From assembly GCA_903833055.1 (NCBI GenBank), contig CAILDU010000048.1, positions 1 through 60,137 on the forward strand: a stretch of DNA of 60,137 bases, in the 5' to 3' direction. The stretch comes from an uncultured Verrucomicrobia subdivision 3 bacterium. GTDB lineage: Bacteria; Verrucomicrobiota; Verrucomicrobiia; Limisphaerales; UBA11358. The notes under the pieces are model-generated. The model worked only from the letters and a program-made list of their open reading frames with translations. It did not search any database and was not told the DNA's origin. Positions 9,902-45,560 of this stretch are shown here, piece after piece. Each line of letters starts with the position of its first letter. Within the stretch, counting starts at the first letter, position 1. The position numbers and the translations under genes are program-made.

Positions 9902-11989
9902 CTACTTCGCATCCATTTTCCAGATGCCGTTCCAATTTTTTGGTGGATTCATGACGAGTTCGGCGCAGCGGGCGGATAAAGTTTTGCTCGGCCCGTCGGA
10001 AAATTCCTTGCCGATGGCGGCGAACATGATTTGCGCCTCGACGAAACGACCGAAGTGGTATTCGTCGAACGCTTTTTTATAGCGCGCGCAAATCTCCGTG
10101 AAGTTCGGCGGCGTGCACGGATTTTCACACTCGAACAATTCCACCGGCTCGCTCTTGCCTTTCACGATGACGCGGTCAATCAAGCGATGCTGACCCTGCG
10201 CGCTGAATTGCGCGAACGCGTCGCGCGTGACGAGCAGCCGCGCGCCGTAAAATTTCGTGAGCGCCTCGACGCGCGCGGCCTCGTTTACGGTGTCGCCGAC
10301 GAGGCCGTAATCGAGTCGCAGCGCCGAACCTTTGTTGCCCACCAACACGCCGCCCGCGTGCAGCGCAACACCGTAACCAAATAGTTTTTGCACTTCCGGC
10401 GTGAGCGTGGCGCGCAAATCTTCCATGGCGGAAATAAGTTTTTGCGCGGCGCGGCTGGCGCGGTCGGCGGCGTCCGGTTGTTTTTGCGGCGCGCCCCAGT
10501 AACTTAAAAATTGGTCGCCAAGAAAATGTTCGAGGTTGCCTTCCTCACCCATGATGGCGCTCGTCTGCGCTTCAAAAACTTGGTTGAGCAAATCGAACAT
10601 TCCTTTCGGGCCGAGCGCCTCGGCGAGCGGCGTGGAGTTTCGCAAATCGGTCAGCAGCAAAACCACGTCGGCGCGGCGCGGTTCCATTGAGCCGGGATCG
10701 GCGAGGACGGCTTCGAGCACGCGCGGCGAAAAATAAAGTCCCATCGTGTGCTTCAATTTCATTCGCTCCAGCCGTTCGACGACGAAATCGTAAACGAAGA
10801 CGACCAAGCCGCTCAACATCAGCACCAGCGTTGGCGGCACGACATGCATGGCTTCATTCGCCGAGCGCAAATGGTTCAATACAAAAAAAGTCAGAAACCA
10901 GTAAGCCGCGGTGACACCGACGACAATCAGCAGGCGTTTGAACGGTTGCTGGACGAGCAGGCAAAGCGCCCCAGCAATCACGCCCGACATGGCGGTTATG
11001 AATAAACAAGCCACCAATGAAGGTGCTTCGAGAAATTCGCCGTGCAGCGCGGCGTTGATAATTTGCAGATGAATTTCCGGCCCGGACATCGCTTTAGGAT
11101 CAAACGGCGTGTCATGAATATCTTGAAAAATTTCAGCGGTCGGGCCGATGAGAATAATTTTGCCCTTAAAAAATTTCCCGTTGTCGTAATTATGTTCCCA
11201 CAATTTTGGCGAAAGCACATCGCCAATGGGATGCGGCTGGTAGCCTTCGCCAGAGCGTGCGGTGTAGCGAAATAACCGGGCATCAAAGCCGGACGGGATG
11301 AGTTCTGGTCGGCCAAATTTGCGGAGCGCGCGGGCATCCATGGATTCGAGGACGGTTTGGGCGGGCAAAACATCACCGATTTGCGCGCCGGTCTGGCGGT
11401 AGCGCGCCCGCCGCAAGATGTCATCAAAATCGGGCCAGATGTTGACGTAACCCAGCCGGTCATCTTCCACTGGCGAATTGGTCTCGCTGATCTGAACTAC
11501 GGATGAATTGGGGAGCTGCAACTCCGTGAAATCACCGCGCCCGGTTTTTTTAGTGCTGATATTGTAGCCAATGATGACGCGGTCTTTGTATTTTTCGAGC
11601 GCGGCGCGCAGTTCGTCGTCGCCGTCGTTTTGCGAGGCGAAAACCAAGTCGAACATAATTACCTTTGCGCCTGCATCGGAAAGTTTTTCGATGAGCCGCG
11701 CCCAAACGGCGCGCGACCACGGAAAAGAATTTTGCAAATTTTTAAGGACGGGTTCGCGGCGAATTTCGTCGTCGCTGAAATCGGCGGCATAAACCGGCTT
11801 GTCAATACCGATGAGGACGAGGCGATCATCCATGGGCGTTTTGCGACCGAGCCGCGCCTGCCAGTCCTGCGCGGAAAATTCCATTTCCTGCAACGGCACA
11901 AACCCGCGCTGCCACAAAAATAAAAACACTAGCGTGCAGACCGCGCAGATGGCGAGGACGATGGCGGTGCGGCGGGCGGCGGGTTTCAT
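9902..11989 (-). CDS. CHASE2 sensor domain / class III adenylate (guanylate) cyclase
   Basis: N-terminal TM, a periplasmic CHASE2-like region, three TM helices, and a cyclase core (VVLLLTDLRNSTPLAE ... HFLGDQFLSYWGAP ... GLVGDTVNEAARVE). Confidence 0.9.
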   Translation of the reverse strand: MKPAARRTAIVLAICAVCTLVFLFLWQRGFVPLQEMEFSAQDWQARLGRKTPMDDRLVLIGIDKPVYAADFSDDEIRREPVLKNLQNSFPWSRAVWARLIEKLSDAGAKVIMFDLVFASQNDGDDELRAALEKYKDRVIIGYNISTKKTGRGDFTELQLPNSSVVQISETNSPVEDDRLGYVNIWPDFDDILRRARYRQTGAQIGDVLPAQTVLESMDARALRKFGRPELIPSGFDARLFRYTARSGEGYQPHPIGDVLSPKLWEHNYDNGKFFKGKIILIGPTAEIFQDIHDTPFDPKAMSGPEIHLQIINAALHGEFLEAPSLVACLFITAMSGVIAGALCLLVQQPFKRLLIVVGVTAAYWFLTFFVLNHLRSANEAMHVVPPTLVLMLSGLVVFVYDFVVERLERMKLKHTMGLYFSPRVLEAVLADPGSMEPRRADVVLLLTDLRNSTPLAEALGPKGMFDLLNQVFEAQTSAIMGEEGNLEHFLGDQFLSYWGAPQKQPDAADRASRAAQKLISAMEDLRATLTPEVQKLFGYGVALHAGGVLVGNKGSALRLDYGLVGDTVNEAARVEALTKFYGARLLVTRDAFAQFSAQGQHRLIDRVIVKGKSEPVELFECENPCTPPNFTEICARYKKAFDEYHFGRFVEAQIMFAAIGKEFSDGPSKTLSARCAELVMNPPKNWNGIWKMDAK

Positions 11990-12100: not shown

Positions 12101-12949
12101 ATGAAAACTTTTCTTCTTCTGGCCGGCTTGGTCGTTTGCACCCGCGTGTCGGTGCTGGCGGTGACGCCGCTGACAGAAAGCACTTTTACGGAAATCATCC
12201 GCACGGCAGATGTGGTCGCCGCCGCCAATAAATCCGTGACGCCCGCCGTGACGAATAATGTTTTCAAAGCGCCGGACTTGGTTCGCACTGGGCCGGCTTC
12301 GCGCGTGGAAATGACCGCGCCAGATCAAACGATTACGCGCGTCGGGGCAAACACAGTTTTCACTTTTGAGCCGGGCGGCAGAAATATTTTATTGGAAAAA
12401 GGCAGCGTGTTATTTCATCCGCCCGCCGGTGTCGGCGGCGGCACGGTTCGGTATCGCGGCACGGCGGCGGCGGTGCTGGGGACGACGATGATTTGCGTGG
12501 TGCTGCCGGACGGCAGTTTCAAAATTCTCGACCTCGAAGGCCATGTGCAGGTGACGCTGAAAAACAATACTCAAATTTTGCTGGAGGCCGGGCAGATGGT
12601 GATTGTGTCGCCGGATGGAAATGTGTTCAGCGACGTAATGGTTTTTAATCTCCAAGAACTTGCATCGCGTTTGTTACTGGTCGTAGGTTTTTCAAATCCA
12701 TTGTCCTCGCTGCCGTTCATTGCCACGGCGATTCAACTGCAAAACGACCAGATTCTCGCTGGCACATTGCCCAACCTCGTGTCGTTTTTGGTAGCCAGCT
12801 TGGGGCTGGAAATAATGCCGCTCCGAAATTTGCCGCCGTGGATGGTGAACGCGCCCGACCACACGCAGGTTTATGTTTCGCCGGTCACTACGTTTCCCAT
12901 TCCCAACCAGCCGTGGTATTTCGATGTTCACCACGACTTCGACAATTGA
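12101..12949 (+). CDS. secreted FecR-domain protein (paralog 1)
   Basis: Signal peptide MKTFLLLAGLVVCTRVSVLA. FecR-like core RVEMTAPDQTITRVGANTVFTFEPGGRNILLEKGSVLFH. Confidence 0.8.
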   Translation: MKTFLLLAGLVVCTRVSVLAVTPLTESTFTEIIRTADVVAAANKSVTPAVTNNVFKAPDLVRTGPASRVEMTAPDQTITRVGANTVFTFEPGGRNILLEKGSVLFHPPAGVGGGTVRYRGTAAAVLGTTMICVVLPDGSFKILDLEGHVQVTLKNNTQILLEAGQMVIVSPDGNVFSDVMVFNLQELASRLLLVVGFSNPLSSLPFIATAIQLQNDQILAGTLPNLVSFLVASLGLEIMPLRNLPPWMVNAPDHTQVYVSPVTTFPIPNQPWYFDVHHDFDN

Positions 12950-12984
12950 CAAGCTCGGCGTATTCCACTAGAAATTTTCTTAAT

Positions 12985-13863
12985 ATGAAAAACGAATTTT
13001 TGTTATTCGTCGCCTTCGCCAGCTTGGCACTCCCACTCGTTGCCGCGCCGCTGACGGAAAGCACGTTCACGGAAATCGTCAATGACGTGAACACGGTGTC
13101 CGCTACTGGTGACGCGACGACGGCGAAGTCGGGCGACGTTTTGAAAGCGCCGCAGCGCGTTCGCACCGGTCCGTCGTCGCGTGCGGAACTTACCGCGCCG
13201 GATAAGACGATTACGCGCGTCGGCGCAAATACGGTTTTTTCCTACGCAGACAGCGGACGCACATTGAATTTGGAACAAGGCAACGTCCTCTTTCACGCGC
13301 CAAAAGGTCTCGGCGGCGGCACGATTAAATCCGGCGGTGCGGCGGCGGCGGTGCTCGGCACGTCGTTGATTGTATCAGCGACAACCGGCGGCGGGTTCAA
13401 AGTAATTTTGCTGGAAGGCAAAGGCAAAGTGACTTTGCCAAATGGAAATTCCGTTACGCTCAAAGCCGGACAGGAAGTTTTTGTGCTGCCGGGCGGAACG
13501 GAATTCAGCAAAGTTTTCACCATCAATTTGGACAAGCTCGTCGCCGGTTCGCAATTGGTGAAAGGTTTTTCGCATGACCTCTCGTCGTTGCCGCTGATTC
13601 TGCTCGCCGTTCAAGATCAAGATTCGCAAATCAAATCCGGCGCATCGTCGGACACCGGCCAGCCGCCGGAATTTTTCCTGCCGCCGTCGCCACCGGGCAA
13701 CGGCCAAAACGTCCTCGACCCCGCCACCTACAACACGGCGGCGCACTCGCCGCTGAACAACCGGCAGTTCCGTTCGCTAAATAACAACCCCAACCAAGGC
13801 ACGCCGCCGAGTAACGTCGGCCCCGGCGGTCGACCGTTTGGCAGCACTGGATTCCGTGGATAA
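12985..13863 (+). CDS. secreted FecR-domain protein (paralog 2) with a Pro/Gly-rich tail
   Basis: Start at the ATG at 12985 (MKNEFLLFVAFASLALPLVA). It shares PLTESTFTEI and RAELTAPDKTITRVGANTVFSY...GNVLFH with paralog 1. Confidence 0.8.
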   Translation: MKNEFLLFVAFASLALPLVAAPLTESTFTEIVNDVNTVSATGDATTAKSGDVLKAPQRVRTGPSSRAELTAPDKTITRVGANTVFSYADSGRTLNLEQGNVLFHAPKGLGGGTIKSGGAAAAVLGTSLIVSATTGGGFKVILLEGKGKVTLPNGNSVTLKAGQEVFVLPGGTEFSKVFTINLDKLVAGSQLVKGFSHDLSSLPLILLAVQDQDSQIKSGASSDTGQPPEFFLPPSPPGNGQNVLDPATYNTAAHSPLNNRQFRSLNNNPNQGTPPSNVGPGGRPFGSTGFRG

Positions 13864-13881
13864 TTTTTATATTTTCATTTT

Positions 13882-14910
13882 ATGAGCCTTAAAAAATATT
13901 TCCTCACGGCGGCTCTGGGATTGGTCGCGAGCGTGAGCGCCTTCGCACAAATGCCGAACGCCAGTCAGCAAGTGGATTCGCTACAACAGCGCCGCCAGTT
14001 GGAACAGTCCGCGCAAATGATGATTGCCTCCAACGCCGTGCCGGAACTTTACAGCGGCGAATCCAGCGATGTCGGCCCGCAGTCCGTGCTGCAAACCAAA
14101 ACGCGCCGCACTTACTTTCAGGCGTTTGCCGACGCGCAGTATTTCTACACGGACAACATGTTTCTCGCGAATCAGAAGAAGCAGGGCGCGGATGTCCTCG
14201 TCAGCACCGTGCAAGCCGCGCACGCGCCAACCGCGTATGATTTTGCGGACGGAAAATTTTCGCCGCGCCTCGGCTTCCAGCAGCAATGGTTCAACTACGG
14301 TTTGACCGGCCCGCAAACGGTGGATGCCTACAATTTCAGCACCCACACTTTCAGCCGCGCCAACCTTGACCAGTTTGATTTCAACGCCATGACCATTTTC
14401 AGCGACGTATCATGGAGTAAACAAAATTGGACTTTCACCGCTGGTGGTTTTTACCGCCAGCTCAACGACGCGCAAAACACCGACCAGTTTTATAACGAAT
14501 ACGTTCCGAACTGGGCGATTCGCTATGATTTATTTACGAGCGATAAAACCGCCTTGTCCATCGGCTACGAAGGTGATGCGCGCCTGACCGATACCGCCAG
14601 CGTGCCGCCGAAGACCGGTAGCAATTTTAACAACCGCGTGGACAACAGCCTCGTCGTCGCCGGCAGTTGGCGCTTGTGCCGCTACGCGATTTTGCAACCG
14701 TCCTACCGTTTTCAACAAACCCATTTCACCACCACTTGGCGCGATGATTATCTGAATTCTTTCGGCCTTGCGCTCTACATTCCGTTCAACGACTACGTCA
14801 CCCTGCGCGGCTACGTCAGCTACGACATTTTGAAGACCGATGGCTTCTACGTGGAAAACAGCGACACGCTCAACGCCGGTGTCGGCTTGAATCTCACTGT
14901 TCGTTTCTGA
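13882..14910 (+). CDS. putative outer-membrane beta-barrel protein
   Basis: Signal peptide ending AFAQ, alternating aromatic/polar beta-strand pattern, and a C-terminal LNLTVRF (terminal Phe). Confidence 0.65.
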   Translation: MSLKKYFLTAALGLVASVSAFAQMPNASQQVDSLQQRRQLEQSAQMMIASNAVPELYSGESSDVGPQSVLQTKTRRTYFQAFADAQYFYTDNMFLANQKKQGADVLVSTVQAAHAPTAYDFADGKFSPRLGFQQQWFNYGLTGPQTVDAYNFSTHTFSRANLDQFDFNAMTIFSDVSWSKQNWTFTAGGFYRQLNDAQNTDQFYNEYVPNWAIRYDLFTSDKTALSIGYEGDARLTDTASVPPKTGSNFNNRVDNSLVVAGSWRLCRYAILQPSYRFQQTHFTTTWRDDYLNSFGLALYIPFNDYVTLRGYVSYDILKTDGFYVENSDTLNAGVGLNLTVRF

Positions 14911-14917
14911 AATAAAT

Positions 14918-16504
14918 TTACTGCGCCGCGACCGGCGGCTTGTGGTAAGTGTGACACTCCGCGCAAGTGTCCGCCACGCCGCCACGCGGACTGTGGCACG
15001 TCGCGCATGTTTCCTTCGTGGGCAACAAAATATCCGCCGTGTTTTTACTGTGAACCGCGTCATGGCATTGCGTGCAGGCAATGTTTGTATGCTTCGCGTG
15101 ATTAAATTTCGCCTGCGCCAGCCAGCGTTCCGTCAGGATTGGCTTCGTAATTTCCGGCAACCCCGCGTTGGAATTTTTCACCTCGTGGCAATACGCACAG
15201 CCCGGAAAAATCGCGCGCGTCGCGCCACTCACATTCCCCACAATTATTTCCGGCGCAGTCGTAGCTGTGCTGAAGAAAATCCGTTTTTCCAAATCCTCGC
15301 CGCTGCCAAATTGCGTCCGTAAACCAGCGAGTTTCTTCGCTACGAAACCGTTCGCGTCTTCATCCCTGCCAGTCTGCGCGACTAAATTCATATATTGATT
15401 TGGCAGACTCCGTAAAAACGCCGACACAAATTCCGCGCTGCCATGCGGTAGTTGCAATTCCGGTGTTTGCGGATCGAATTGTAGCGAGTGACAAACGCGG
15501 CAGTTCGGCTCGAACGCCACCGGCTTCATGAACGCGCCCGCCGCATCCGGCGAATGACAAAACGCGCAGTCCAGCTTCGCGCCGCCGGGCAATTTCGGAA
15601 TCGTCGCGCCCGTCAGATGCAGCGCGTGATTAAATTTCAACGTGTCCGGATCGCGCAATTTTTCCGTGATAAAACGAAACTGCGGATGGTCGTCCGCAAA
15701 ATGGTTGATTGTTTCCGCTTTCCGCTTTCCGCTTTCCGCTTTTACCCCCGCCATCTTCGTCGCGTCGGCGTGGCAGAAATTGCAGTTCGCATCCGTCGTC
15801 GCTGCAATTTTTATTCCCTGATGTTCCGCGTGGCAGAATGTGCAGGAAATTTGCGCCGCATCCGGCTGATGCACATTTTTACCCGCGTGACATTTCAAGC
15901 ACGACGCATCAATCGCCGTTGGCTCGGCAGCTTTGGCGAGCGCGAGCTTCTTCAAATCCCAAATTCCCGGCTCCGCGTGCAGCGCAACATTTGCCATCCC
16001 ATTCGGTCCCAAATTCCCCGCGACGTGACACGCGCCACAGTTTTGATTCAAGTGATTCGTCACCGCCAGCGCCGCGAACGCCGCGCCGGAATGCGGACTG
16101 GAAATTGTTCCGGGGCTGATGAAATTATTCCGCCACGGCGGATTGCCCAGCACAACCAAAAGCACCGCGCACGATGCCGCGATGACCGCGAGCGTCACGC
16201 GCCCGCGCCAGACGCGCAACGTCGGCACCGGCGAACATTTGGCAATTGGCCGACAGCAACTTCCATTCGGCAGCGGGCCGGACTCGCATTCGCCGCCGGT
16301 GCGCGTGCAAATCCAGCGGCCTTTCGTTTCGCCTTCTTTAACTTTCAGGACGGGTTTGCACTCGGCGGTTGCGCGACAATTTCCTTTTTGATCCGGCCCA
16401 AGCCGACACGCATTGCCTTCGCACGCGTGACCGCAAATCCAGTTTTGATTTGGCCGCGCGTAGTTATGCGCGTCAAAATCCGGCGCGGGCAGTTGCTCGC
16501 TCAT
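14918..16504 (-). CDS. membrane-anchored decaheme c-type cytochrome with a Cys-rich N-terminal domain
   Basis: Ten CxxCH motifs: CGACH, CLKCH, CTFCH, CNFCH, CAFCH, CRVCH, CAYCH, CTQCH, CATCH, CAECH. One TM helix (VTLAVIAASCAVLLVVL) follows about 95 residues containing 10 Cys. The start at 16504 overlaps the upstream stop (ATGA). Confidence 0.9.
   Translation of the reverse strand: MSEQLPAPDFDAHNYARPNQNWICGHACEGNACRLGPDQKGNCRATAECKPVLKVKEGETKGRWICTRTGGECESGPLPNGSCCRPIAKCSPVPTLRVWRGRVTLAVIAASCAVLLVVLGNPPWRNNFISPGTISSPHSGAAFAALAVTNHLNQNCGACHVAGNLGPNGMANVALHAEPGIWDLKKLALAKAAEPTAIDASCLKCHAGKNVHQPDAAQISCTFCHAEHQGIKIAATTDANCNFCHADATKMAGVKAESGKRKAETINHFADDHPQFRFITEKLRDPDTLKFNHALHLTGATIPKLPGGAKLDCAFCHSPDAAGAFMKPVAFEPNCRVCHSLQFDPQTPELQLPHGSAEFVSAFLRSLPNQYMNLVAQTGRDEDANGFVAKKLAGLRTQFGSGEDLEKRIFFSTATTAPEIIVGNVSGATRAIFPGCAYCHEVKNSNAGLPEITKPILTERWLAQAKFNHAKHTNIACTQCHDAVHSKNTADILLPTKETCATCHSPRGGVADTCAECHTYHKPPVAAQ
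15713..15740. repeat. heptanucleotide micro-array (TTCCGCT)x4
   Basis: Four perfect tandem copies. In frame on the minus strand they encode KAESGKRKAE just after heme motif 4. Confidence 0.95.
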
Positions 16505-17316
16505 CGCGCACCTCCGGAAAATCCAAAGACCAAAATAATGTGTAGCGCGGTGAAAATCATCAGTCCGTAAGTCAGCGGAATGTGGACGAACAGCCACAAT
16601 CGCAACGCGAGTTGCAGCGCGCGGTGATAATCCAATCCGTCTTTCTGGCGGACGAGCGCGGTAAGTTTCTCAATCTTTTCTTTTTCCGCGTCGTTGGCAA
16701 AACGGCGCAGGTCGTCGAGTTCCGCGAGCAGCACGCTCACTTCACGCCGCGACTCGGCCAGATGGTTCCAGAAATTTTTCGGGCCGGCGAAAAATGGCGC
16801 GAGGCGTTTCGTGTAAAATTCCGCGATGACCAGTGATTTTGCATCCGCGCCGAGTGCCAGAGTTTCCGCTTCCGTTTTCAATGCATGACGAATGGTGGGA
16901 ATTTTTTCAAAGACAACTTCGCCGCCGCGCGTCGCGAGCCGACGCGGCAAAACACGGCTGAAAAATAATCCGACCATGCCGCTGCCGCTAACCAGAACGA
17001 ACAGCCACGCGAGCACGACCTCAAACCAGCCGTGCGGCGCGCGAAAATTCAGGTGGATGAGAAACAGCAGCGTTGTGAAAAAGCCGAGGTAGATGTGGAT
17101 TTGCAGCCACGTCTCAGATTTGCCGAGCGGCAGGAATGGCAGTTTTTTCCGCACGTTGTAGATCGTCAGCACGAACATTCCCGCGAGCAGCGCCCAGCCG
17201 GTGAGGTAAGCGTAATTCGGTAGCGCATTGTATTTTGCATTCAGCCACAACGCTCCTGCAGTTGCGGCAATCAGCGCGAGCAAACCAAAAATAAATTGTT
17301 GGCGGAAGCGATTCAT
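16501..17316 (-). CDS. polytopic membrane protein with two intramembrane His-x13-His pairs (candidate di-heme b cytochrome)
   Basis: The start at 17316 (MNRFRQQF) overlaps the upstream stop (ATGA). There are five hydrophobic helices. HIYLGFFTTLLFLIH and HIPLTYGLMIFTALH each lie within a TM helix. Confidence 0.7.
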   Translation of the reverse strand: MNRFRQQFIFGLLALIAATAGALWLNAKYNALPNYAYLTGWALLAGMFVLTIYNVRKKLPFLPLGKSETWLQIHIYLGFFTTLLFLIHLNFRAPHGWFEVVLAWLFVLVSGSGMVGLFFSRVLPRRLATRGGEVVFEKIPTIRHALKTEAETLALGADAKSLVIAEFYTKRLAPFFAGPKNFWNHLAESRREVSVLLAELDDLRRFANDAEKEKIEKLTALVRQKDGLDYHRALQLALRLWLFVHIPLTYGLMIFTALHIILVFGFSGGAR

Positions 17317-19037
17317 AACTTCAGCCACTTCGAAAGCGCATCGAGATTGTTCAGGTTCATTCGCTCCAAAGCGCCGTGCGGACACGCACGTTCGCACGCG
17401 GGGCCACCGTGGTTTTCCACGCAGAGATCGCACTTCGTCGCCTTCGCGATGGGTTTCATTTCCTGATCCACGAGCAGTTCGCCGCGTTCGTCGCGCGCCT
17501 CGACCATGCGGATGGCGTCGTAGGGACAATTCGTAAAACAGGATTTGCAGCCGATGCACGTCGCGGGATTGATGACGACCTGGCCGGCGAATGACTCGCG
17601 ATGGATCGCACCGGTCGGGCAGCCGATCATGCAAACCGGATCGGCGCAGTGCATGCAGGCATTGGCGATCATCAGCCGCCCGGCGCTCGGGCCGTGGCGC
17701 AGGAAGCGCGGGTTGTTGTCGTGCGTGGAGGCGCAGGCGCGCACGCAATCGTCGCAACGCGTGCAGCGGTCGAGGTCAATGACCATCGTGGCCGTGCCGT
17801 TGAAGAAACGGTTCTCGGTGAGAAATTCCAAAATCTCCGCGCCAACTTTTTCGCGTGTGGCGATTTCGGGTGGCGCGGAATCCAAATCGTCTTCAACTTT
17901 TTCGACGGGCGGTGGCAGTTCGTTTTTCGGCAGCGACGGCAAAACAATTTCCTCCATCACGCGCGTCGGCACGATGAGCAAATGCGTGTAGCCGATGGCG
18001 CGGAGCGAGAACTGCATATTCACCGCCGCATCTTTGTTGCGCCAGTTGTGGGCAATTTCGTTTAGCCCAAAAATTTGTCCCGCGCCGATGTAGTTCAGCG
18101 TGCGTTCGCCGCCGCCGAATTTCTGGCTGACGCGCGCGAAGCCGGCGCGCAGCAAAACGATTCCGTTCGGATAATCACCTTCGCCAACAATGACGGGCTC
18201 TTTCTCCGGTCGCACGCTGCCGGATTGCGCGAGGCGTTTGTATTCACCCGACCAGTCGTAGTCGCCATAGGTCGAAAATTCCACGGCCTCGGCCACGCGG
18301 TCGAGTTGTTCCTTCGAGAGATTTTTGAACAGCGGCGTGGCGCGGAGATACGAGGCCAGCGCGCGTTCGCGGTAAATTTTATTGATGTGTGTGCGGAGCG
18401 CGTCGTCGTATTTCATAAGGTCGCGCAGACCTTGCCAGCGGATTTCCAAAAGTTCCGCGTCGTCGCTGTCGGCAAAAATTGTGGACGTGCGCGCCATGCG
18501 GCTCAACGCGGCGATTTCGCCGAAGAATTCTCCCGCGAACATTTCCGCCGTGCGGTGCTGATCCAAAATGCGCGGCACGTCCTGCAAAAAAACGCGCGTC
18601 TCCTTTTCATTTTGTCGCGCGCTGACGCCGGAACTTTGCCCGAGCAAGGTGCGCGGCAACATTTCCGGCGGACGCGAACGGTTCCAAAGCTGCGCGAGCG
18701 TGCGGAAGACGCCTTTTTTATTGGTCGCCTGACGACCGAGCAACGACGGCGGGAGATCAGGTTTCAACACTACGCGCGCCGCGCCTTGCAAAATCAGAAA
18801 CGCCGACGTGCCGTAATCGCCCTGACGCATGATGATTTCGCCTTTGCGAAATTTCAGAATGCGCGCGTCGTTGCGGAGGATTTCGCGGAGCGGCGTGCGT
18901 TTGGGAAATTTTTCGGCATCCATCCCACTGAACGGCACGGTCAGAAGCAGACGGCTCACGTCTTCGTCGGTCATGTTCGCGTCGAACGCGGCGTCCCAGC
19001 GTTGCGGGCGTTCGAGAATGGTCGGGGCGGCGGGCAT
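17313..19037 (-). CDS. tandem cyclic-nucleotide-binding domains fused to a four-cluster [4Fe-4S] ferredoxin (DmsB/NrfC-like)
   Basis: cNMP phosphate-binding cassette FGEIAALSRMARTSTIFA and a second CNB-like domain. Four Cys groups: CTRCDDCVRAC, CMHCADPVCMIGCP, CIGCKSCFTNCP, CDLCVENHGGPACERACP. Confidence 0.9.
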   Translation of the reverse strand: MPAAPTILERPQRWDAAFDANMTDEDVSRLLLTVPFSGMDAEKFPKRTPLREILRNDARILKFRKGEIIMRQGDYGTSAFLILQGAARVVLKPDLPPSLLGRQATNKKGVFRTLAQLWNRSRPPEMLPRTLLGQSSGVSARQNEKETRVFLQDVPRILDQHRTAEMFAGEFFGEIAALSRMARTSTIFADSDDAELLEIRWQGLRDLMKYDDALRTHINKIYRERALASYLRATPLFKNLSKEQLDRVAEAVEFSTYGDYDWSGEYKRLAQSGSVRPEKEPVIVGEGDYPNGIVLLRAGFARVSQKFGGGERTLNYIGAGQIFGLNEIAHNWRNKDAAVNMQFSLRAIGYTHLLIVPTRVMEEIVLPSLPKNELPPPVEKVEDDLDSAPPEIATREKVGAEILEFLTENRFFNGTATMVIDLDRCTRCDDCVRACASTHDNNPRFLRHGPSAGRLMIANACMHCADPVCMIGCPTGAIHRESFAGQVVINPATCIGCKSCFTNCPYDAIRMVEARDERGELLVDQEMKPIAKATKCDLCVENHGGPACERACPHGALERMNLNNLDALSKWLKL

Positions 19038-19055: not shown

Positions 19056-20363
19056 TTAAGCATCCAAAACCAAATCGTTTTTCGGGCGGCAAACACAGGT
19101 GAAACAACTGCCGGCTTCCGGCGTAGCGTCAGGCTTCTTCAAATAATCCACGTCGCCGGATTTAATGGCGACGACGCACGAACCGCAACTGCCCGCGCAG
19201 CAGCCGGAATCAATTTTTACGCCCTGCGCTTTCGCAAATTCCAAAATATTTTCCGCCGACGGCTCCCAGCGCACGGTTTTATTTGAGCGCGCGAACGTCA
19301 CATTTATTTTTGCGAGATGAACCGTTTCGCTCGGCGTGGGCGCGGCCGTTTTTTTCTTCACCGTCGCCGGACCGAACGCTTCGAAGTGGACGACGCTGTC
19401 CGGCACGCCCCACGCTTCGAGGCCGTCGGTCAGACTTTTCATGAACGCGCCACTGCCGCAGAGGTAATATTCAAAATTATTCGACGGCAGAATTTCCTTC
19501 AAAAGCTCAATGCCCACGCGGCCTTCGTGATGAAAATCTTTTCCCTTCACGTCTTTGTCGCTGGGTTTGCTGTAAGCGATATGCAGATGAATGTTGTCGT
19601 TTTCCGCCGCGAGTTTTTCCAACTCGGCCTTGTGAATGTGTTCGCGGACATTGCGGACGCCGAAGAAAAAATACGCCTCACGCTTCGAGCCGCTCGCGGC
19701 AATCGCGTTCGCCATGCTCAACATCGGCGTGATGCCGACGCCGCCCGCGAGCAGCACGATGGGATTCGACTTGGCCATGTCCAAAAAGAAATGGCCGGTC
19801 GGCGCTTTGACATTCAGGATGTCGCCTTCCTTCACCACGTCGGTAAAAAAACTGGAGCCTGCGCCCGGCGGCAACTCCGGTTTGTCTGGCGGCGATTTTT
19901 CCTTTTTGATCGTGACGCGGTAATATTCTTTTTGATGCGGACTGTCGGAAAGCGAGTAGCAGCGGATGAGCGGTTTGTCGCGTCCGGGCACATCGAGTTG
20001 AAACGTGAGATACTGGCCGGGCTTGAATTGCGGCAGCGGGCGACCGTCGTGCGGCTTCAAATAAAACGCGTTCACGTCCTCGCACTCGGGATTTTTTTTG
20101 ACGACGGAAAATTTTCGTAAACCGTTCCAGCCGGTCTGCGCCTGTTCGGCCTCGCGGCAACGGATTTTGGTTTCGGCGAGTTGGGCGCGCAGTTTTTCCA
20201 ACGCGACGCGTTGCTGGCGGTTTTCGGCCCAAACGCGAAGGAGCGAGCGGAAAATTTCCAACGTCAGCCACGCGAGCAGTCCGGCGAGCAGCGCAAAGCC
20301 GACGGCGAAGCTCAAACTGTCTCCGCTGACTTGCCGCAGGGAATCAATTAGGGTTGCATTCAC
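19056..20363 (-). CDS. membrane-anchored FNR-like FAD/NAD(P)H oxidoreductase with a C-terminal 2Fe-2S ferredoxin domain
   Basis: N-terminal TM plus coiled coil. RCYSLSD (FAD), GGVGITPMLSM (NAD(P)H) and CCAGSCGSC...CFTCVC (plant-type 2Fe-2S). The start codon at 20363 is GTG, so the start is uncertain. Confidence 0.88.
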   Translation of the reverse strand: MNATLIDSLRQVSGDSLSFAVGFALLAGLLAWLTLEIFRSLLRVWAENRQQRVALEKLRAQLAETKIRCREAEQAQTGWNGLRKFSVVKKNPECEDVNAFYLKPHDGRPLPQFKPGQYLTFQLDVPGRDKPLIRCYSLSDSPHQKEYYRVTIKKEKSPPDKPELPPGAGSSFFTDVVKEGDILNVKAPTGHFFLDMAKSNPIVLLAGGVGITPMLSMANAIAASGSKREAYFFFGVRNVREHIHKAELEKLAAENDNIHLHIAYSKPSDKDVKGKDFHHEGRVGIELLKEILPSNNFEYYLCGSGAFMKSLTDGLEAWGVPDSVVHFEAFGPATVKKKTAAPTPSETVHLAKINVTFARSNKTVRWEPSAENILEFAKAQGVKIDSGCCAGSCGSCVVAIKSGDVDYLKKPDATPEAGSCFTCVCRPKNDLVLDA

Positions 20364-21535
20364 GCTGCCACTCCATTAACCAATTTGTCGCCGTGAGTAA
20401 AACAATTTGTCACCCAGCCGCAGGTTTTGTCGCCGGAATTATTCTGGCGGCGAACATTTCCAGTGGCGCGGAAACGCCGCCCAAATTTCTCGGCGCGAAT
20501 TCCTGCGCCAATTCCAGTTGCCACGGCGGCGGTGGCGCGAAACAAAATCAGTTTCTCGTCTGGTCGCTCAAGGATTTTCATTCGCAACGCCCCGCCGCGA
20601 CGCTTACGACGGCGCGCTCGAAGCAAATCGCCGACGCACTGGAAATCAAAGACCCGTCCGCCAGTTCCCGTTGCACGACTTGCCACGCGCCGTTACGTGA
20701 CGTGCCGGAAAGTCTGCGCGGTGAAAATTTCAAGGTGAGCGAATGCGTTTCGTGTGAAAGCTGCCACGGCGCGGCGGAAAATTGGTTGCGCGCGCATACG
20801 CGACACGATTACACGCGCGCCGACCGCACTGCCGCTGGAATGCGCGACTTGCAAAATCTTTACGTCCGCGCGAACACCTGCATCGCGTGCCACCAGAATG
20901 TGGACGCCGACATTCTCAAGGCCGGGCATCCGGAATTAATTTTTGAACTCGACGGCCAGAGCGTCGCCGAACCGAAACATTGGTGCGCGGAGAAAAACGG
21001 CAACGGCGCGCAGGCTTGGCTGGTTGGTCAGGCCGTGGCATTACGAGAAATGAGCTGGCAACTAGCCAATGAAAAATCTCCGACAGAAAGTGAAATCAAC
21101 CGATGGAATGCGCTTGTTTGGCTGATGCAGACGGCCGCGCCGGAGAGCAATTTGAAAATGCCGCCAAAAACCAGAGCCGTTACGATTGCCTACGCTGCCA
21201 GCACCCTTCAAGGCGAAAGTGACCAAGTTGCGCGTGACTTCGCAACGACTGACTGGTCGGATACAAAGACGAGTAAGATTTTGTCTGCATTCGCCAATTC
21301 AAACGAGTCGTTCCGCGACACGGCCGTTTCGCAAAATCTCCAAGCCCGCCGCGCCGAGCGGCTGGTGCTCGCGCTCGACCGCCTCGTCGCCTCGCTGCCG
21401 GAGTATAAAAACAACGAGCCAATGCAATCGTCGCTCAATCAACTTTTCAAACTCGCGCAATCCATTCCCGACTTCGACCCCAAAGAGTTTGCCGCCGCGC
21501 TGGAGAAACTTTCCGCCGCGCTCGCCGCGCATTGA
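20354..21535 (+). CDS. secreted multiheme c-type cytochrome (3 CxxCH plus 1 Cx4CH)
   Basis: CANSSCH, CTTCH, CESCH and CIACH. The ORF-track start (TTG at 20354) overlaps the divergent gene. GTG at 20393 (VSKTICHPAAGFVAGIILAANISSGA) is a more plausible signal-peptide start. Confidence 0.8.
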   Translation: MHSRCHSINQFVAVSKTICHPAAGFVAGIILAANISSGAETPPKFLGANSCANSSCHGGGGAKQNQFLVWSLKDFHSQRPAATLTTARSKQIADALEIKDPSASSRCTTCHAPLRDVPESLRGENFKVSECVSCESCHGAAENWLRAHTRHDYTRADRTAAGMRDLQNLYVRANTCIACHQNVDADILKAGHPELIFELDGQSVAEPKHWCAEKNGNGAQAWLVGQAVALREMSWQLANEKSPTESEINRWNALVWLMQTAAPESNLKMPPKTRAVTIAYAASTLQGESDQVARDFATTDWSDTKTSKILSAFANSNESFRDTAVSQNLQARRAERLVLALDRLVASLPEYKNNEPMQSSLNQLFKLAQSIPDFDPKEFAAALEKLSAALAAH

Positions 21536-35677: not shown

Positions 35678-38600
35678 ATGAAAAATAAAGGAACAATCCA
35701 GCGCGGCGCGCGTTTGAAATTTCTGCATTCTGCATTGTTCATTCTGCCTTTGCTCGCCGCGTTGTCGCTGTTGGCGCAAGAAAATCCGTCCGGCTCCGGC
35801 CCGGAAATTTCGGTTCCAAAAAATATTCCCGCCGACGCGACGCACGCGTTGCCAAAACCAAACTGGATTGACCAATCACAAGCCGACGCGGACAAAAAAT
35901 CTCGCGGTTGTCTCGAATGCCACGTCGGCAGCGAGTCCATGCACGCGTCAAAAAATGTCGTGCTGGGCTGCACGGATTGCCATGGCGGCAATGCGACGCC
36001 GGGCTTGAAACAAACGCAGGCGCACGTCGCGCCGCGTAATCCGGTTTTCTGGCAAAGCTCGGCGAACCCGAACGACTCGACGATTTTGCTCAATCACGAA
36101 TCCGCCGAGTTCATCAAATTTGTAAATCCCGGCGATTTGCGCGTCGTGGAGGAAACCTGCGCGCCGTGCCACGCGGATATCGTCCACAACGTCAGCCACA
36201 GCATGATGCGCCATGGGGCGATGCTCTGGGGCGCGGCGCTCTACAACAACGGCGCATATCCGGCAAAAAATTATCGCTTCGGCCAAGCCTACGGTTTGGA
36301 CGGCTCGCCGCTGCGATTGGAAAGTCCGGTTCCCGTCACGCAGGCAATGACCGACCGCTGGGGAATTTTGCCGTTCATTGATCCGCTGCCGCGCTTTGAA
36401 ATTTCGCAACCGGGCAATTTGCTCCGCATCTTCGAGCGCGGCGGCGAAGAGCAATCGCAGCTCGGCAATCCGAATCCGTTTGAAGAACCCGGCAAGCCCG
36501 CGCGCCGTTTGAGCGAGCGCGGACTCGGCACGTTGAACCGGATTGATCCCGTATTTTTGAATTTGCAGAAGACGCGCTTGAACGATCCGCTGCTGGATTT
36601 CATGGGCTCAAACAATCATCCGGGCGATTATCGCAGCAGCGGCTGCACGGCGTGTCACGTTGTTTATGCGAACGACCGTTCGCCCACGGATTCCGGCTGG
36701 TATGCGAAATACGGCAATCAAGGCTTGAGTTTTTCCGCCGACAAAGCGATTCGCAAAGACGAGCGCGGACATCCTATCACGCACCAATTCACGCGCGCGA
36801 TTCCGACGAGTCAGTGCATGAACTGCCATATGCATCAGGGAAATTTGTTCGTGAATCCATTTCTTGGTTTCACTTGGTGGGATCAGGAAACCGACGGCGA
36901 ATTCATGTATCCGGCCAAGCAAAAAAATCCGACGCCGGAAGAATTGACGCGCGCCATTCGTGATAATCCCGAGGCCGCCGCCGCGCGCGGTTTGTGGGGC
37001 GATTTGGATTTTCTCGAAAAAGTTTCCGAGTTGAATCCGAAATTGAAAGATACGCAGTTCGCCGATTACCACGGTCACGGCTGGATTTTCCGCGCGGTGT
37101 TCAAGCACGATCGCGAAGGCAATTTACGCGACCGCGATGAAAATATTATTACGGCAGACGACCCGCAGAAATTTGCGAAGGCCGTTCACTTGAAGGACGA
37201 ACATCTCGCGCACGGAATGCAATGCGCCGACTGTCACTTCGACGTGGACGTTCACGGCAACGGCCTACTTTACGGCGAGCCGCGCGCGGCGACGACCATC
37301 GAGTGCATTGATTGTCACGGCACAATTCAAAAACGCCCGTCGCTCGTGACGAGTGGCAACGGCGGTATTTGGACCGGCACAAACATCGCCAATGTGGATT
37401 TGCGCGCGAATAATACCGCGTTTGGCCCGCGCTTTTTCTGGCAGGGAAATAAATTGTTCCAGCGTTCTTCGATGGCGCCGGACTTGATTTGGGAAGTGCC
37501 GCAAACCATTGATACTATTGATCCGAATTCGTCGCACTATAACGCAAAGTCGGCTTACGCAAAAACTTTGGGACGCGACGGAAAAACTTGGGGCGCAGTG
37601 CCGGAGCCAAAAAATTGCACGCGCGATTTGGCGCATGACAATTCAAATGTCGGTTGCCAAGTCTGCCATTCGTCGTGGGCAACTTCCTGTTTCGGCTGTC
37701 ATTTGCCGATGCGCGCGAACCAGCGCGTGCCGGCGAACAAATTTGAAGGCACGACCACGCGCAATTTTACGAGCTACAATCCGCAGGTCGTGCGCGATGA
37801 TGTTTTTCAGCTCGGCGTGGATGCGAGTTACAAGAGCAATCGCCTCGCCGTATTGCGCTCGTCGTCCGCCGTCATCGTGAGTTCGCAGAACGCAAATCGC
37901 GAATGGGTTTATTCGCAGCAGCAGACCATCAGCGCGGAGGGTTACAGCGGCGAGGCTTACAATCCGCACTTGCCGCATACAACGAGCGGCGTGGGCACGA
38001 CGAAAAATTGCGAAGACTGCCACGTTGCGAAAGCCAATGACAACAATGCTTGGCTCGCGTCGCTGCTCGGTTTCGGCACGGGCACGGTGAATTTCTTTGG
38101 CCGCTACGCCTATGTCGGCGAAGGCAAGGGCGGACTCGACGCAGTGATTTGGACGGAGCAAGACGAACCGCAGGCCGCGCTCGGCAGCCATCTGCATCGC
38201 CTCGCGTATCCCGACAATTACAAAAAATTCGTCGAAGAAGATCACAGCATTTTGCACGACGGCGAACGCAAGGAAGCAACCGAGATTCTCGATTTGATTC
38301 AGCGCGGCGAGTATCTTTACACCGCGAATGGCAAAGATGGCTTCGAGGTTTTTGATATTGCAAACATTGATCAAAAAGGCTTTTCCGAACGCATCAGCAC
38401 CGCGCCAGTTTCGCCGCTCGGCCAACGCACTTACGTCCGCACGAAATACGCCACGAGCGTCACGCTGCCGAGCACGCTTGGCGTGGATCCGCTGCGAACG
38501 CATTTGCCGGAAAATCAGGAGCAACCCGTCAGCCCGATTTACGCGTGGGTTTTTGTGACTGACCGCGAGGAAGGTTTGGTGATGGTCACGGTCGGCACAT

Positions 38601-39538
38601 TGCTCGACGGCAATCCTGACAATAATTATTTCGATAAGGAAAAAATTATCCGCTTCAATCCGGATGGAAAACTTTCCGGCGCGATGCACAGTTTCATGGC
38701 GGGAACGAATCTTTACGTCGTCGGCAAAAACGGATTGTTTGTGGTCGGTCTGCGTAATGACGCACTCGAAGCGCCAATGTTGGCGGGCGAATTGACCGAC
38801 GGTTTAAAAAATCCGCGCGCGGTCGGCGTGCAATTCCGTTATGCGTTTGTGACGGACGATGAAGGTTTCAAAGTCCTTGATGTCACCGAGCCGACGAAAC
38901 CGAAATTGATTCCCGGCGCCTTCGTGCCGCTCAAAAACGCGCAGCGGTTTTATCTCGCGCGCACTTACGCCTACGTTGCGGATGGTGCGGATGGATTGGC
39001 GTTCATTGACATTTCCAATCCGGAAAAACCGAAACTGGAACGGCTTTACAACGCCGATGGAAAATTGAACGACACGCGCGCGGTGCAAATCGGTTCGGTC
39101 AATGCGTCGGAATTTGCGTTCGTTGCGGATGGGAAAAATGGATTGCAAATCTTGCAGATGATTTCGCCGGAAAATGTTCCGGGCGCGATGGGTTTTAGTC
39201 CCGCGCCGAATCCAAAACTCATCTCAACATTCCCGACGCGCGAACCGGCGGTGGCGGTCGGTCGCGGGCTTGACCGCGACCGCGTGGTGGATGAAAGCGG
39301 AAATCAAACGGTCGTGTTCGGACGCAAGGGTTCACGTCCGTTTAATCTCGCCGAGATGAAAAAGTTTTACGAGCGCGATGGTGAACTTTACACGGTGGAA
39401 AATGTTTTTTCGCGCGATGGAAAACTGGTCACGCGCAGTGGCGATGAGTTGAAACCGACAGCGGAATTTCAATCCGAAACGCAGGAAGCCATTGCACCAC
39501 CGAGTAATAATGAGCGTTTGCTGCGGCGCGGCGAGTAA
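35678..39538 (+). CDS. decaheme c-type cytochrome fused to a C-terminal LVIVD-repeat (beta-propeller-like) region
   Basis: Signal peptide. Ten CxxCH motifs: CLECH, CTDCH, CAPCH, CTACH, CMNCH, CADCH, CIDCH, CQVCH, CFGCH, CEDCH. C-terminal repeats [58 protein letters not shown]. Confidence 0.88.
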
Positions 39539-45300: not shown

Positions 45301-45560
45301 AAACCGCAGACGACCAAGAGATAGCTCGCCACGTCGCGCACTCGTTCCTGCGCGTTTTCAAATTTAAAAAGCCATTTCAACAACGCCGCCGAGCCGAGCG
45401 CGATGAGCGTATTGCCGACGGCGGTGATGACCATGAACCAGCCAAACGGCACGCCGCCAAAAAATAAAAATAGGAACGCGCCGAGCGTGATAGCGAGCCA
45501 GTAGCGATAACCCAAAATAAAAACCACCGCCAACGCCAGCCCCGCCAGCGGCCAGAACAA
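42366..45560 (-). CDS. MASE1-PAS hybrid sensor histidine kinase with receiver(s) and an HPt domain; the 5' end is possibly frameshifted
   Basis: A multi-TM MASE1-like N-terminus, PAS, HisKA (SEFLANMSHEIRTPL), HATPase, a receiver (ILAAEDHPFNRK...ILMDCNMPELDG) and HPt (AAHSLKGLLALFG). The called start is TTG. An upstream ORF (to 45682) looks like the missing N-terminus in another frame. Confidence 0.9.
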   Translation of the reverse strand: MFWPLAGLALAVVFILGYRYWLAITLGAFLFLFFGGVPFGWFMVITAVGNTLIALGSAALLKWLFKFENAQERVRDVASYLLVVCGFGAALNAALNAAGLACENRISWDALLPNMLAWWVPNALAVLVLPPFFIVWTSRSLWHWNFRKGAEAFVCAAGLIASTLVAFNTWFVYGIHNYPLVYLPVPFLLWGGFRFGPRGAVAGTMMAASMVVYFFLHGRGPFLTDDDLGGLRLFGVYICVTALVNLLLAAIATERQRAEINLAENEKRLRTVVADQSDLICRFLPDGEITFVNQAFCEFHGQTEAQLLGSDFFQLLTIAETKTLRDNLAALPADRPVCSFDRRAVAAAGHVEWQQCNIRRFTHDSGKHFEYQAVIQNITSRKQAELAVQEAKAALEKTNLQFQIAAKEANAAAAQANRANAAKSEFLANMSHEIRTPLSGILGMIELLSQTRLDPRQKEFAAAAAASANALLHVINDVLDFSKIEAGKMNIAQENFSLRDIVDGVLENASTREPEKKIHLAAIVRRNVPHRLIGDPVRLRQVLLNLVGNGVKFTERGEVIIRVQPITHAQGRIKLRFEITDTGIGLTPEQTHKLFQPFMQADTSSSRKFGGTGLGLAISRKIIELMGGRIGVHSAVGTGSTFWFELPFAVPPQSAIERSFPGLVFERVLIAAPNASLRESLAERLRGWGVDCSEVATATELLRTLRHDIRSTILPVVLCDDEMLELGGAALRTLLMEQRGRVQCILLAGPTATLGDEQNDLAQFANVLLKPAREQSLFDALVNVVAGKKPEALRPVRLPGDTEIIARETVVKTTPISNLRILAAEDHPFNRKLWQLMLDGFGVKADWTENGREAVNKFSSGTYDAILMDCNMPELDGHEATAEIRKIETEKNISPRVRIIAITANALVGERERCLAAGMDDYLPKPFTSQQLYQSLLAAVPARSASDKIFDDGQIEQLCNDLGRAAVCDMAADFVNELPDRLKEIHRLHAAAHWPDLKRAAHSLKGLLALFGFRPLSEMLQTVEDAAEVSDANSAGETLASLDAQAEKALVHLRDWRQKQPVAR

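Follow-up and report, generated by a model that had tools for sequence, protein, structure and literature searches.

Cyclic nucleotide-binding (CNB) domains control kinases, channels, exchange factors, and transcription factors. Our literature searches found no characterized case of CNB control of an iron-sulfur (Fe-S) electron-transfer protein, and the search for functional studies of CNB-ferredoxin fusions gave only a 2024 preprint in which a ptdABCDEFG gene cluster is named (bioRxiv 10.1101/2023.11.21.568154). In that description, PtdA is a pentaheme cytochrome, PtdB a porin, PtdC a flavin adenine dinucleotide (FAD)/NAD(P) oxidoreductase, PtdD a tetraheme cytochrome, PtdF a ferric-reductase-like membrane protein, and PtdG a decaheme cytochrome; PtdE has cyclic-nucleotide-binding and 4Fe-4S domains and is credited with two 4Fe-4S clusters. 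Table S7 of the preprint comprises 20 organisms, several of them cultured, which are described as all originating from saline environments. Here, we describe a ptdE-like gene in a 60,137-nucleotide stretch of DNA (contig CAILDU010000048.1 of an uncultured Verrucomicrobia subdivision 3 bacterium of the Limisphaerales; the whole stretch is referred to as the window) and compare its locus with this cluster. Our best explanation, to which we assign as a whole a probability of about 0.5, is that the gene product would be the Fe-S wire, and at the same time the cyclic-nucleotide gate, of an electron conduit that resembles a split NADPH oxidase (NOX).

The PtdE-like protein and its relatives

The ptdE-like gene (17313..19037) is a single open reading frame (ORF) of 574 amino acids (aa) on the minus strand, a strand assignment that the initial annotation of this DNA had left out. 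ORF, Pfam, and homologue data delimited tandem CNB domains followed by a predicted four-cluster ferredoxin domain, with domain scores far beyond chance. Four co-directional genes (C-E-F-G) form the operon, into which the ptdE-like gene, the second of them, is translationally coupled; a gap of 18 nt separates it from the end of the upstream ptdC-like gene, and its TGA is overlapped by the ATG of the ptdF-like gene (ATGA). Two loci of relatives, L054 and L079, display the exact ptdA-G order (pentaheme cytochrome, ~500-aa protein, C, tetraheme cytochrome, E, F, decaheme cytochrome). Because these loci share the ptdA-G order and their E genes are 52 to 53% identical to the window protein over aa 1-573, the latter is best regarded, on sequence grounds, as a PtdE orthologue, and it is called PtdE below. 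In agreement with the definition given in the preprint, it combines CNB and 4Fe-4S domains and is flanked by C, F, and G, with D nearby. The PtdA/PtdB part of that definition does not apply, and a tblastn search with three PtdA (pentaheme) and three PtdB (porin) queries detected neither gene in the 60-kb window.

The HycB/HydN/DmsB-type ferredoxin domain (aa 418-560; 17358..17786, minus strand) carries 16 Cys in four groups (C425/428/431/435, C461/464/469/473, C494/497/500/504, and C536/539/548/552), which match the patterns CxxCxxCxxxC, CxxCx4CxxxCP, CxxCxxCxxxCP, and CxxCxnCxxxCP. The motif CMHCADPVCMIGCP, quoted in the initial annotation, is located at aa 461-474. None of the 16 Cys varied among 74 homologues, and each was at least 98.6% conserved in a set of 219 diverse homologues, which extends to ~35% identity and was used for the percentages of the cassette positions of PtdE. 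The four-cluster family Fer4_11 of Pfam was matched with 37.7 bits (cut-off, 26.2), and other 4Fe-4S families matched as well. The closest solved relatives of the domain are the four-cluster proteins HycB3/HycB4, HycB, ArrB-type proteins, and NrfC. When the family profile was compared with PDB sequences, aa 416-567 aligned end to end with residues 7-166 of the 184-residue HycB3 (E, 2.2e-22), and the N-terminal half retrieved cyclic GMP (cGMP)-dependent protein kinase (PKG) and the regulatory subunit of protein kinase A (PKA-R). The 16 invariant Cys and the end-to-end HycB3 alignment support the prediction of four [4Fe-4S] clusters rather than two.

In the N-terminal half, Pfam cNMP_binding (PF00027) matched with an E value of 5e-22 (78.1 bits; cut-off, 27.5) in three stretches that map onto an interrupted first domain, CNB1 (aa ~45-210), and a second domain, CNB2 (aa ~251-365). 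CNB1 (18408..18905, minus strand) was delimited by phmmer and profile searches, in which the CNB domains of PKG and PKA-R matched aa 48-92 and 163-248, and by AlphaFold. It is split by a partly conserved insertion of ~65 aa (aa ~93-160), in which G101 and Q116 were invariant and W118 was nearly invariant (at least 90%) in the 74-sequence alignment. The phosphate-binding cassette of CNB1 (aa 172-188; FGEIAALSRMARTSTIF; 18474..18524, minus strand) includes the motif quoted in the initial annotation, FGEIAALSRMARTSTIFA, which was found at aa 172-189. Conservation within the cassette was 98% for G173, 90% for E174, 96% for R180, 93% for R183, and 70% for T184. The cassette (FGEIAALSRMARTST) has the canonical length and retains Gly-Glu and Arg-Thr at canonical spacing. 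In PKA RI-alpha and PKG, the phosphate-binding cassette follows the pattern GE-x8-R[TA]A, with a spacing equal to that of CNB1, and its Gly-Glu and Arg-Thr contact the ribose (2'-OH) and the cyclic phosphate. CNB2 (17943..18287, minus strand), as delimited by Pfam and conservation, contains the top-scoring cNMP_binding stretch (aa 279-364) and a lengthened, non-canonical cassette (FGLNEIA...SLRAIGY), with 98% conservation of G324, 89% of E327, and 84% of R346.

The AlphaFold2 model of PtdE had a mean predicted local distance difference test (pLDDT) value of 71.7 and a predicted template modeling score of 0.63. Both CNB barrels reached pLDDT values of 85 to 93, and the CNB1 insertion stayed below 55; the confidence of the ferredoxin half was lower than that of the barrels, as expected, because the clusters are absent from the model. 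When the model of aa 1-~380 was compared with the PDB by Foldseek, PKG and the PKA regulatory subunits were retrieved with their tandem CNB-A/B modules (6rsx, E of 4.9e-19; 4z07, E of 6.5e-17; also 1cx4 and 1rgs). As these matches are tandem CNB-A/B modules, the sensor half is PKA-R-like rather than CRP-like. The mean frequency of the top residue was 0.55 to 0.63 in the CNB domains and 0.74 in the Fer4 domain; the linker (aa 366-399), with a value of 0.19, is free to vary. The regulatory half is thus under real constraint, nearly as strong as that on the ferredoxin domain.

Among representatives clustered at 50% identity, 6265 PtdE relatives were found at an E value of ≤1e-3 and 576 at ≤1e-30, most of the latter being full length, and full-length relatives were present in 222 species-level genomes. 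The fusion spans at least eight phyla, with hosts that include Limisphaerales, Akkermansiaceae/Luteolibacter, Opitutaceae, "Candidatus Uabimicrobium," Phycisphaerae, Rhodospirillaceae, Hwanghaeella, Sneathiella, Zixibacteria, and Poribacteria; the nearest relatives (95 to 100% identity) belong to metagenome-assembled genomes of Limisphaerales/Verrucomicrobiia. Database names are generic ("cyclic nucleotide-binding domain-containing protein" or, at JGI, [quoted passage not shown]). Several family members (P0174, P0188, P0191, P0200, and P0206) carry an N-terminal extension of ~350 aa without a Pfam match.

Synteny was counted in 80 fetched loci, with the informative loci for each gene as denominators. 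PtdC was encoded upstream on the same strand in 68/76 loci, PtdF directly downstream in 68/72, and PtdG downstream on the same strand in 64/66. The C-E-F-G order was kept in loci of Verrucomicrobiota, Planctomycetota, and Alphaproteobacteria. PtdA and PtdB accompanied this core in only 10 of the 80 loci (alphaproteobacterial, Opitutaceae, and planctomycetal). The conserved unit is therefore C-(D)-E-F-G, and the window holds a porin-less, cyclase-linked verrucomicrobial variant of the named, uncharacterized ptd kind. Natural PtdE-PtdF fusions were also found (P0137, 843 aa; P0162, 856 aa; and P0170); residues 568-842 of P0137, its C-terminal 275, are 38% identical to the PtdF of the window (E, 5e-63). 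In one locus (L035), C, D, and E were present and F and G were undetected; it is the only such locus with 8 kb of downstream sequence, and rearrangement or mis-assembly may account for this departure from the synteny.

These data confirm the domain observations of the initial annotation. A CNB domain with an intact phosphate-binding cassette is supported by PF00027, by the presence of FGEIAALSRMARTSTIFA, and by the conservation of G173, E174, and R183, and the second, more divergent CNB domain corresponds to CNB2 with its non-canonical cassette. Four Cys groups of the complex iron-sulfur molybdoenzyme electron-transfer type are evident from the 16 conserved Cys, Fer4_11, and the HycB3 alignment, and the statement that the protein lacks a helix-turn-helix (HTH) and is not a Crp/Fnr regulator agrees with the Pfam and NCBIfam scans, which returned neither an HTH nor any other output domain. 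The fusion had also been called unusual, which, as a claim that it is rare or had gone unnoticed, does not hold given the 576 representatives at E≤1e-30, the 222 species-level genomes, the name PtdE in the preprint, and the JGI label. The architecture is hence common (576 clusters); an assigned function does not come with it, since the preprint calls the function "completely unknown."

Other assignments of the protein were considered and ruled out. A Crp/Fnr-type regulator is incompatible with the absence of an HTH in the Pfam and NCBIfam scans and with a C-terminal half that is a ferredoxin domain. A periplasmic, Tat-exported ferredoxin was rejected because there is no twin-arginine signal and because the NAD(P)H- and cyclic-nucleotide-binding partners point to the cytoplasm. 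NCBIfam gave below-threshold matches of aa 415-570 to HydN, DmsB, the AegA N terminus, DsrO, and NrfC, none of which reached a curated equivalog score (HydN, DmsB, NrfC, DsrO, and others; top score, 65.8 bits versus cut-offs of 200 to 1000). The genes around ptdE encode a reductase, cytochromes, and a membrane protein rich in His, with neither a catalytic molybdo- or hydrogenase subunit nor an NrfD/DmsC-type anchor among them. With equivalog scores far below the cut-offs and no catalytic or NrfD-type partner nearby, a bona fide DmsB, NrfC, HydN, or AegA subunit was dismissed as well.

Operon partners and the predicted electron path

The ptdC-like gene (19056..20363, minus strand) encodes a protein with an N-terminal transmembrane (TM) helix, read from the sequence, FAD_binding_6 and NAD_binding_1 domains, and a C-terminal plant-type 2Fe-2S domain (Pfam and NCBIfam); the reductase part of Hmp matched in NCBIfam with an E value of 6.8e-80, under the cut-off. 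The ptdF-like gene (16501..17316, minus strand) encodes a membrane protein of 271 aa with five predicted TM helices and two H-x13-H motifs. The His pairs of these motifs, H74/H88 and H245/H259, were at least 97% conserved in 70 homologues and fall into predicted TM3 and TM5 according to hydropathy. The E-F fusions indicate that the N terminus of PtdF is in the cytoplasm and, therefore, that both His-bearing helices run from the inside to the outside. H74 and H245 would then lie toward the cytoplasmic side of the membrane and H88 and H259 toward its periplasmic side, the geometry of a two-heme transmembrane relay. A longer ORF (16501-17757; 418 aa) that overlaps ptdE was discarded as an ORF-calling artifact, the real start of ptdF being the ATG at 17316.

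The ptdG-like gene (14918..16504, minus strand), whose ATG overlaps the ptdF stop codon (ATGA), encodes a decaheme cytochrome c of 528 aa in which a Cys-rich N-terminal domain and one TM helix precede 10 CXXCH motifs. A GTG at 16597 was dropped as the start in favor of the ATG at 16504, at which the similarity to distant homologues begins. The N-terminal domain (16150-16504, minus strand) comprises ~95 aa before the TM helix, is devoid of a signal peptide, and shows the pattern YxRPNQxWxCG...C...C...EC...RWxC...C...CC...C; at least nine of its Cys are shared with alphaproteobacterial and planctomycetal homologues. At the E/F interface, it could provide a further metal or Fe-S site on the cytoplasmic side.

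The ptdD-like gene (20393..21535) is divergent, on the plus strand, and encodes a c554-like tetraheme cytochrome with a probable GTG start and a signal peptide (Pfam Cytochrome_C554, 2.5e-8). Its heme sites are CANSSCH, CTTCH, CESCH, and CIACH (three CXXCH and one CX4CH), and it is homologous to the tetraheme gene that lies between C and E in L054, L079, and other loci. The probable divergent starts of ptdC (GTG 20363) and ptdD (GTG 20393) are separated by ~29 bp (20364-20392), so that the promoters must overlap coding sequence; this tight layout recurs in Limisphaerales loci.

We infer cofactor occupancy, the direction of electron flow, heme binding by PtdF, the identity of the ligand, and gating alike in the following model. 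PtdE would be the Fe-S subunit, on the cytoplasmic side, of an electron-transfer complex with the conserved composition PtdC-(D)-E-F-G, and we are highly confident of its role as an electron wire. NAD(P)H would reduce the FAD of membrane-anchored PtdC, from which electrons would move to the 2Fe-2S domain of PtdC, through the four [4Fe-4S] clusters of PtdE, across the membrane via two b-type hemes on the four invariant His of PtdF, and finally to decaheme PtdG and tetraheme PtdD in the periplasm. Overall, the scheme would follow the logic of a split NOX or the Fre-MsrQ pair. Regulation would be the task of the N-terminal, PKA-R-like tandem CNB module of PtdE; binding of cyclic AMP (cAMP) or cGMP at CNB1 would alter the packing of this module on PtdC or on the ferredoxin domain and thereby open or close the wire. 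In this lineage, a CHASE2 cyclase encoded next to the operon would supply the ligand; it probably responds, via FecR-like proteins, to a cue from the periplasm or the outer membrane. Outward export by such a conduit would spend NAD(P)H and dissipate membrane potential, which would offer a rationale for tight control.

Signaling neighbors and alternatives to gating

The CHASE2 class III nucleotide cyclase gene (9902..11989, minus strand) is a candidate producer of the PtdE ligand, a linkage suggested by its position. Its product was identified by Pfam (CHASE2, 1.2e-39; Guanylate_cyc, 4.3e-9) and by PDB matches to adenylyl cyclases and Cya2. It has a His (EHFLGD) at the position of the substrate-specifying Lys of adenylyl cyclases and a Gly (DYGLVGD) at the second specificity position. 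A cyclase homologue was found near the operon in 26 loci of two verrucomicrobial orders, 21 of Limisphaerales and 5 of Akkermansiaceae/Luteolibacter; in the latter five, the identity is ~30% (80% in L066). Across the cyclase orthologues, the catalytic domain is 80 to 97% conserved, compared to 42 to 80% for the CHASE2 sensor.

Next to the cyclase gene, a block on the plus strand (12101..14910) encodes two secreted FecR-domain paralogues (12101-12949 and ~12985-13863; Pfam FecR) and a signal-peptide protein, which are probable partners of the CHASE2 sensor. The third product (13882-14910) is a 342-aa protein with a signal peptide, a C-terminal ...TVRF (Phe), and no Pfam match, and is a putative outer-membrane beta-barrel. 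The FecR and barrel genes are conserved together with the cyclase, and the whole block, or at least the cyclase, adjoins the operon in the 21 Limisphaerales loci. CHASE2 sensors with periplasmic FecR-domain partners have been described (PMC5192318). The FecR-barrel layout resembles a Fec-like trans-envelope signaling module that feeds a CHASE2 cyclase.

In other lineages, the family members themselves have acquired further signaling domains. FHA domains occur at the N terminus (P0126) or between the CNB domains (P0130, P0215, and P0369). In "Candidatus Uabimicrobium" (L044, 3652-9698, and L047) and in a relative (L081, 4778-12034), FHA domains are present in PtdC as well as in PtdE, and the gene directly upstream, in divergent orientation, encodes a Ser/Thr kinase; the signaling enzyme in these loci matches the sensor domains of the operon. 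The N-terminal half of PtdE thus behaves as a signaling module.

The initial annotation had interpreted the fusion as ligand control of a redox wire. This interpretation is partly supported and, strengthened by the cassette conservation, the FHA variants with their adjacent kinase, and the adjacent cyclase, is our best hypothesis. The CNB1 cassette, the E-F fusions, the FHA/kinase variants, and the cyclase in the window and in 26 related loci support, but do not prove, gating, and we consider control of PtdE by cyclic nucleotides to be close to an even chance.

Several observations weigh against the proposed gated conduit. The preprint that names the cluster states that its function "remains completely unknown." Synteny shared by close relatives may be explained by common descent alone. 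The CNB2 cassette is non-canonical, with a Glu-to-Arg spacing of 19 residues instead of 9. The product of the cyclase, i.e., its choice of ATP versus GTP, is uncertain because the substrate-specifying Lys is replaced by His. Within 8 kb, the cyclase is missing from every alphaproteobacterial and planctomycetal locus, from the majority of the Akkermansiaceae loci, and from the Limisphaerales relatives of 60 to 72% identity. For PtdF, Pfam searches with 40 members gave Ferric_reduct (PF01794) for 1/40 (E, 0.084) and DUF4405 for 27/40 (best E, 6e-5), and matches to cytochrome b561 were, like those to DUF4405, sub-threshold. The PtdF model (shallow alignment; pLDDT, 67.5) retrieved nothing by Foldseek at E≤0.001, the best E value being 0.43. 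Because the model was poor, a structural relative was not found, and the Pfam matches were sub-threshold, it is the His motifs that point to the putative heme binding by PtdF.

Some of these observations would also fit a PtdE that serves as the Fe-S wire of the Ptd complex with ligand-free CNB domains acting as a scaffold or docking platform for PtdC, PtdF, or PtdG. The lengthened, non-canonical CNB2 cassette, the lack of a nearby cyclase in most loci, and the 65-aa insertion of CNB1, whose conserved G101, Q116, and W118 could form a protein-protein interface, are in line with such a role. However, 90 to 98% conservation of the Gly-Glu and Arg-Thr of CNB1 in very divergent members is unexpected for a pure scaffold, and the recurrent addition of FHA domains and the neighboring signaling enzymes point to regulation. 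We therefore regard a mere scaffold as unlikely.

It is somewhat less likely still that the CNB-like domains sense a small molecule other than cAMP or cGMP (a nucleoside, another nucleotide, or a redox metabolite), in which case the gate would report metabolic state instead of second-messenger levels. CNB-fold domains of the CRP/FNR superfamily bind varied ligands, the Foldseek matches include the nucleoside-binding, cAMP-independent PKA-R of trypanosomes (6hyq, 6flo, and 6h4g), and the neighboring cyclase has the atypical His and Gly at its substrate-specifying positions. Against this, the phosphate-binding R183 is present in 93% of the members and the cassette has the canonical length, whereas the trypanosome proteins are changed at these positions, the titles of the PDB entries listing E311A/T318R/V319A back-mutations.

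In a further model, which we consider improbable, PtdE would still be a wire and electrons would flow inward, from periplasmic donors through the multiheme cytochromes to NAD(P)+ or a cytoplasmic acceptor. The similarity of PtdD to cytochrome c554 (Pfam), the acceptor for hydroxylamine oxidoreductase, would suit this direction; the Limisphaerales and Akkermansiaceae hosts, however, are generally heterotrophs. Inward flow is also suggested by the presence of ptd genes in nitrite oxidizers (Nitrospirales and Nitrospina), which need reverse electron flow, and by similarities to nitrogen-cycle enzymes (bioRxiv 10.1101/2023.11.21.568154). It would, however, oppose the membrane potential, the reduction of NAD(P)+ by c-type hemes is strongly uphill, and an energy-coupling subunit is not encoded. 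Finally, that PtdE is a redox sensor instead of a conduit, with Fe-S clusters that report redox state, as those of FNR in the same CNB-fold superfamily do, and a CNB module that transmits or integrates this state to another protein, is highly improbable, since PtdE has no output domain, its 16 invariant Cys show the arrangement known from the wire proteins HycB and DmsB, and it is coupled to, and sometimes fused with, a membrane protein, its gene being placed between those of the reductase and the cytochromes.

Returning to the gated conduit, PtdE may tentatively be viewed as the first second-messenger-gated electron wire. In this still rather doubtful scheme, cAMP or cGMP would act directly on the Fe-S subunit, with an FHA phospho-threonine input in some lineages, and would turn on or off a NOX-like export of electrons from NAD(P)H, independent of quinones, to multiheme cytochromes in the periplasm or outside the cell; in this lineage, the CHASE2 cyclase would receive an envelope signal from the outer-membrane barrel via the FecR-like proteins. 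Should gating be real, second messengers would regulate, at the level of the protein, a trans-membrane electron conduit in bacteria of at least eight phyla. This would matter for extracellular electron transfer, for redox balance in waters deficient in oxygen, in which ptd genes are highly transcribed, and for the design of switchable bio-electronic wires.

Elsewhere in the window, further genes were noted. A second multiheme protein, without relationship to the Ptd genes, is encoded at 35678-39538 (plus strand); its 1286 aa include 10 CXXCH motifs and a beta-propeller region of LVIVD repeats. The gene at 42366-45560 (minus strand) specifies a hybrid histidine kinase of the MASE1-PAS type that also contains receiver and Hpt domains, and the gene at 55279-58503 (plus strand), a candidate restriction or defense gene, specifies a 1074-aa fusion of an Mrr-like nuclease and a ResIII helicase.

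Comparison with known systems

The two halves of PtdE resemble different well-known proteins. Its ferredoxin domain has the same four-Cys-group spacing as HycB, HydN, DmsB, and NrfC, including HycB3/HycB4 of hydrogen-dependent CO2 reductase (PDB 7qv7), and the presumed shared role is that of a linear [4Fe-4S] chain. In contrast to these proteins, PtdE joins the domain to a sensor module of 400 aa, and a molybdo- or hydrogenase partner and an NrfD/DmsC anchor are absent nearby. The sensor module shares with PKA-R and PKG a tandem of two CNB domains joined by a helical region (Foldseek E, 5e-19 to 1e-15 over ~350 to 380 columns), as well as the canonical Arg-Thr-type cassette of CNB1. It differs from them in sequence (only 12 to 17% identity), in the 65-aa insertion of CNB1, and in the lengthened cassette of CNB2; moreover, the regulated partner would be an electron-transfer chain and not a kinase.

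With regard to the complex as a whole, the Tmc- and Hmc-type complexes of sulfate reducers are similar in that a single operon encodes a cytoplasmic Fe-S protein together with a membrane cytochrome b and a multiheme cytochrome c of the periplasm. Unlike Ptd, they use a CCG-type Fe-S protein and NrfD-like subunits and have neither an NAD(P)H reductase nor sensor domains. NOX and Fre-MsrQ carry out NAD(P)H-driven transmembrane electron transfer via two b hemes. The likeness to Ptd consists of a cytoplasmic NAD(P)H/FAD dehydrogenase and of the two His pairs on two parallel TM helices of PtdF, and the EF-hand control of NOX5 would be analogous to regulation by the PtdE sensor module. In Ptd, however, the path would be split over three proteins with an extra 2Fe-2S center and a four-cluster Fe-S relay, PtdF has five predicted helices instead of six and misses the Pfam Ferric_reduct threshold, and the acceptors would be multiheme cytochromes, not O2 as for NOX.

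The closest counterpart is the PtdE of the preprint, with the same CNB and 4Fe-4S architecture and the same C, D, F, and G neighbor types. In the window, the tetraheme gene is transcribed divergently and is not located between C and E, PtdA and PtdB are absent, the CHASE2 cyclase/FecR block flanks the operon, and the host belongs to the Limisphaerales, outside the saline-environment table of the preprint. The published description is thereby refined. The sequence supports four clusters where two had been counted, and the C-(D)-E-F-G unit is far more widespread than the porin-containing ptdA-G cluster, is not confined to saline habitats, and repeatedly adjoins signaling enzymes that match its sensor domains.

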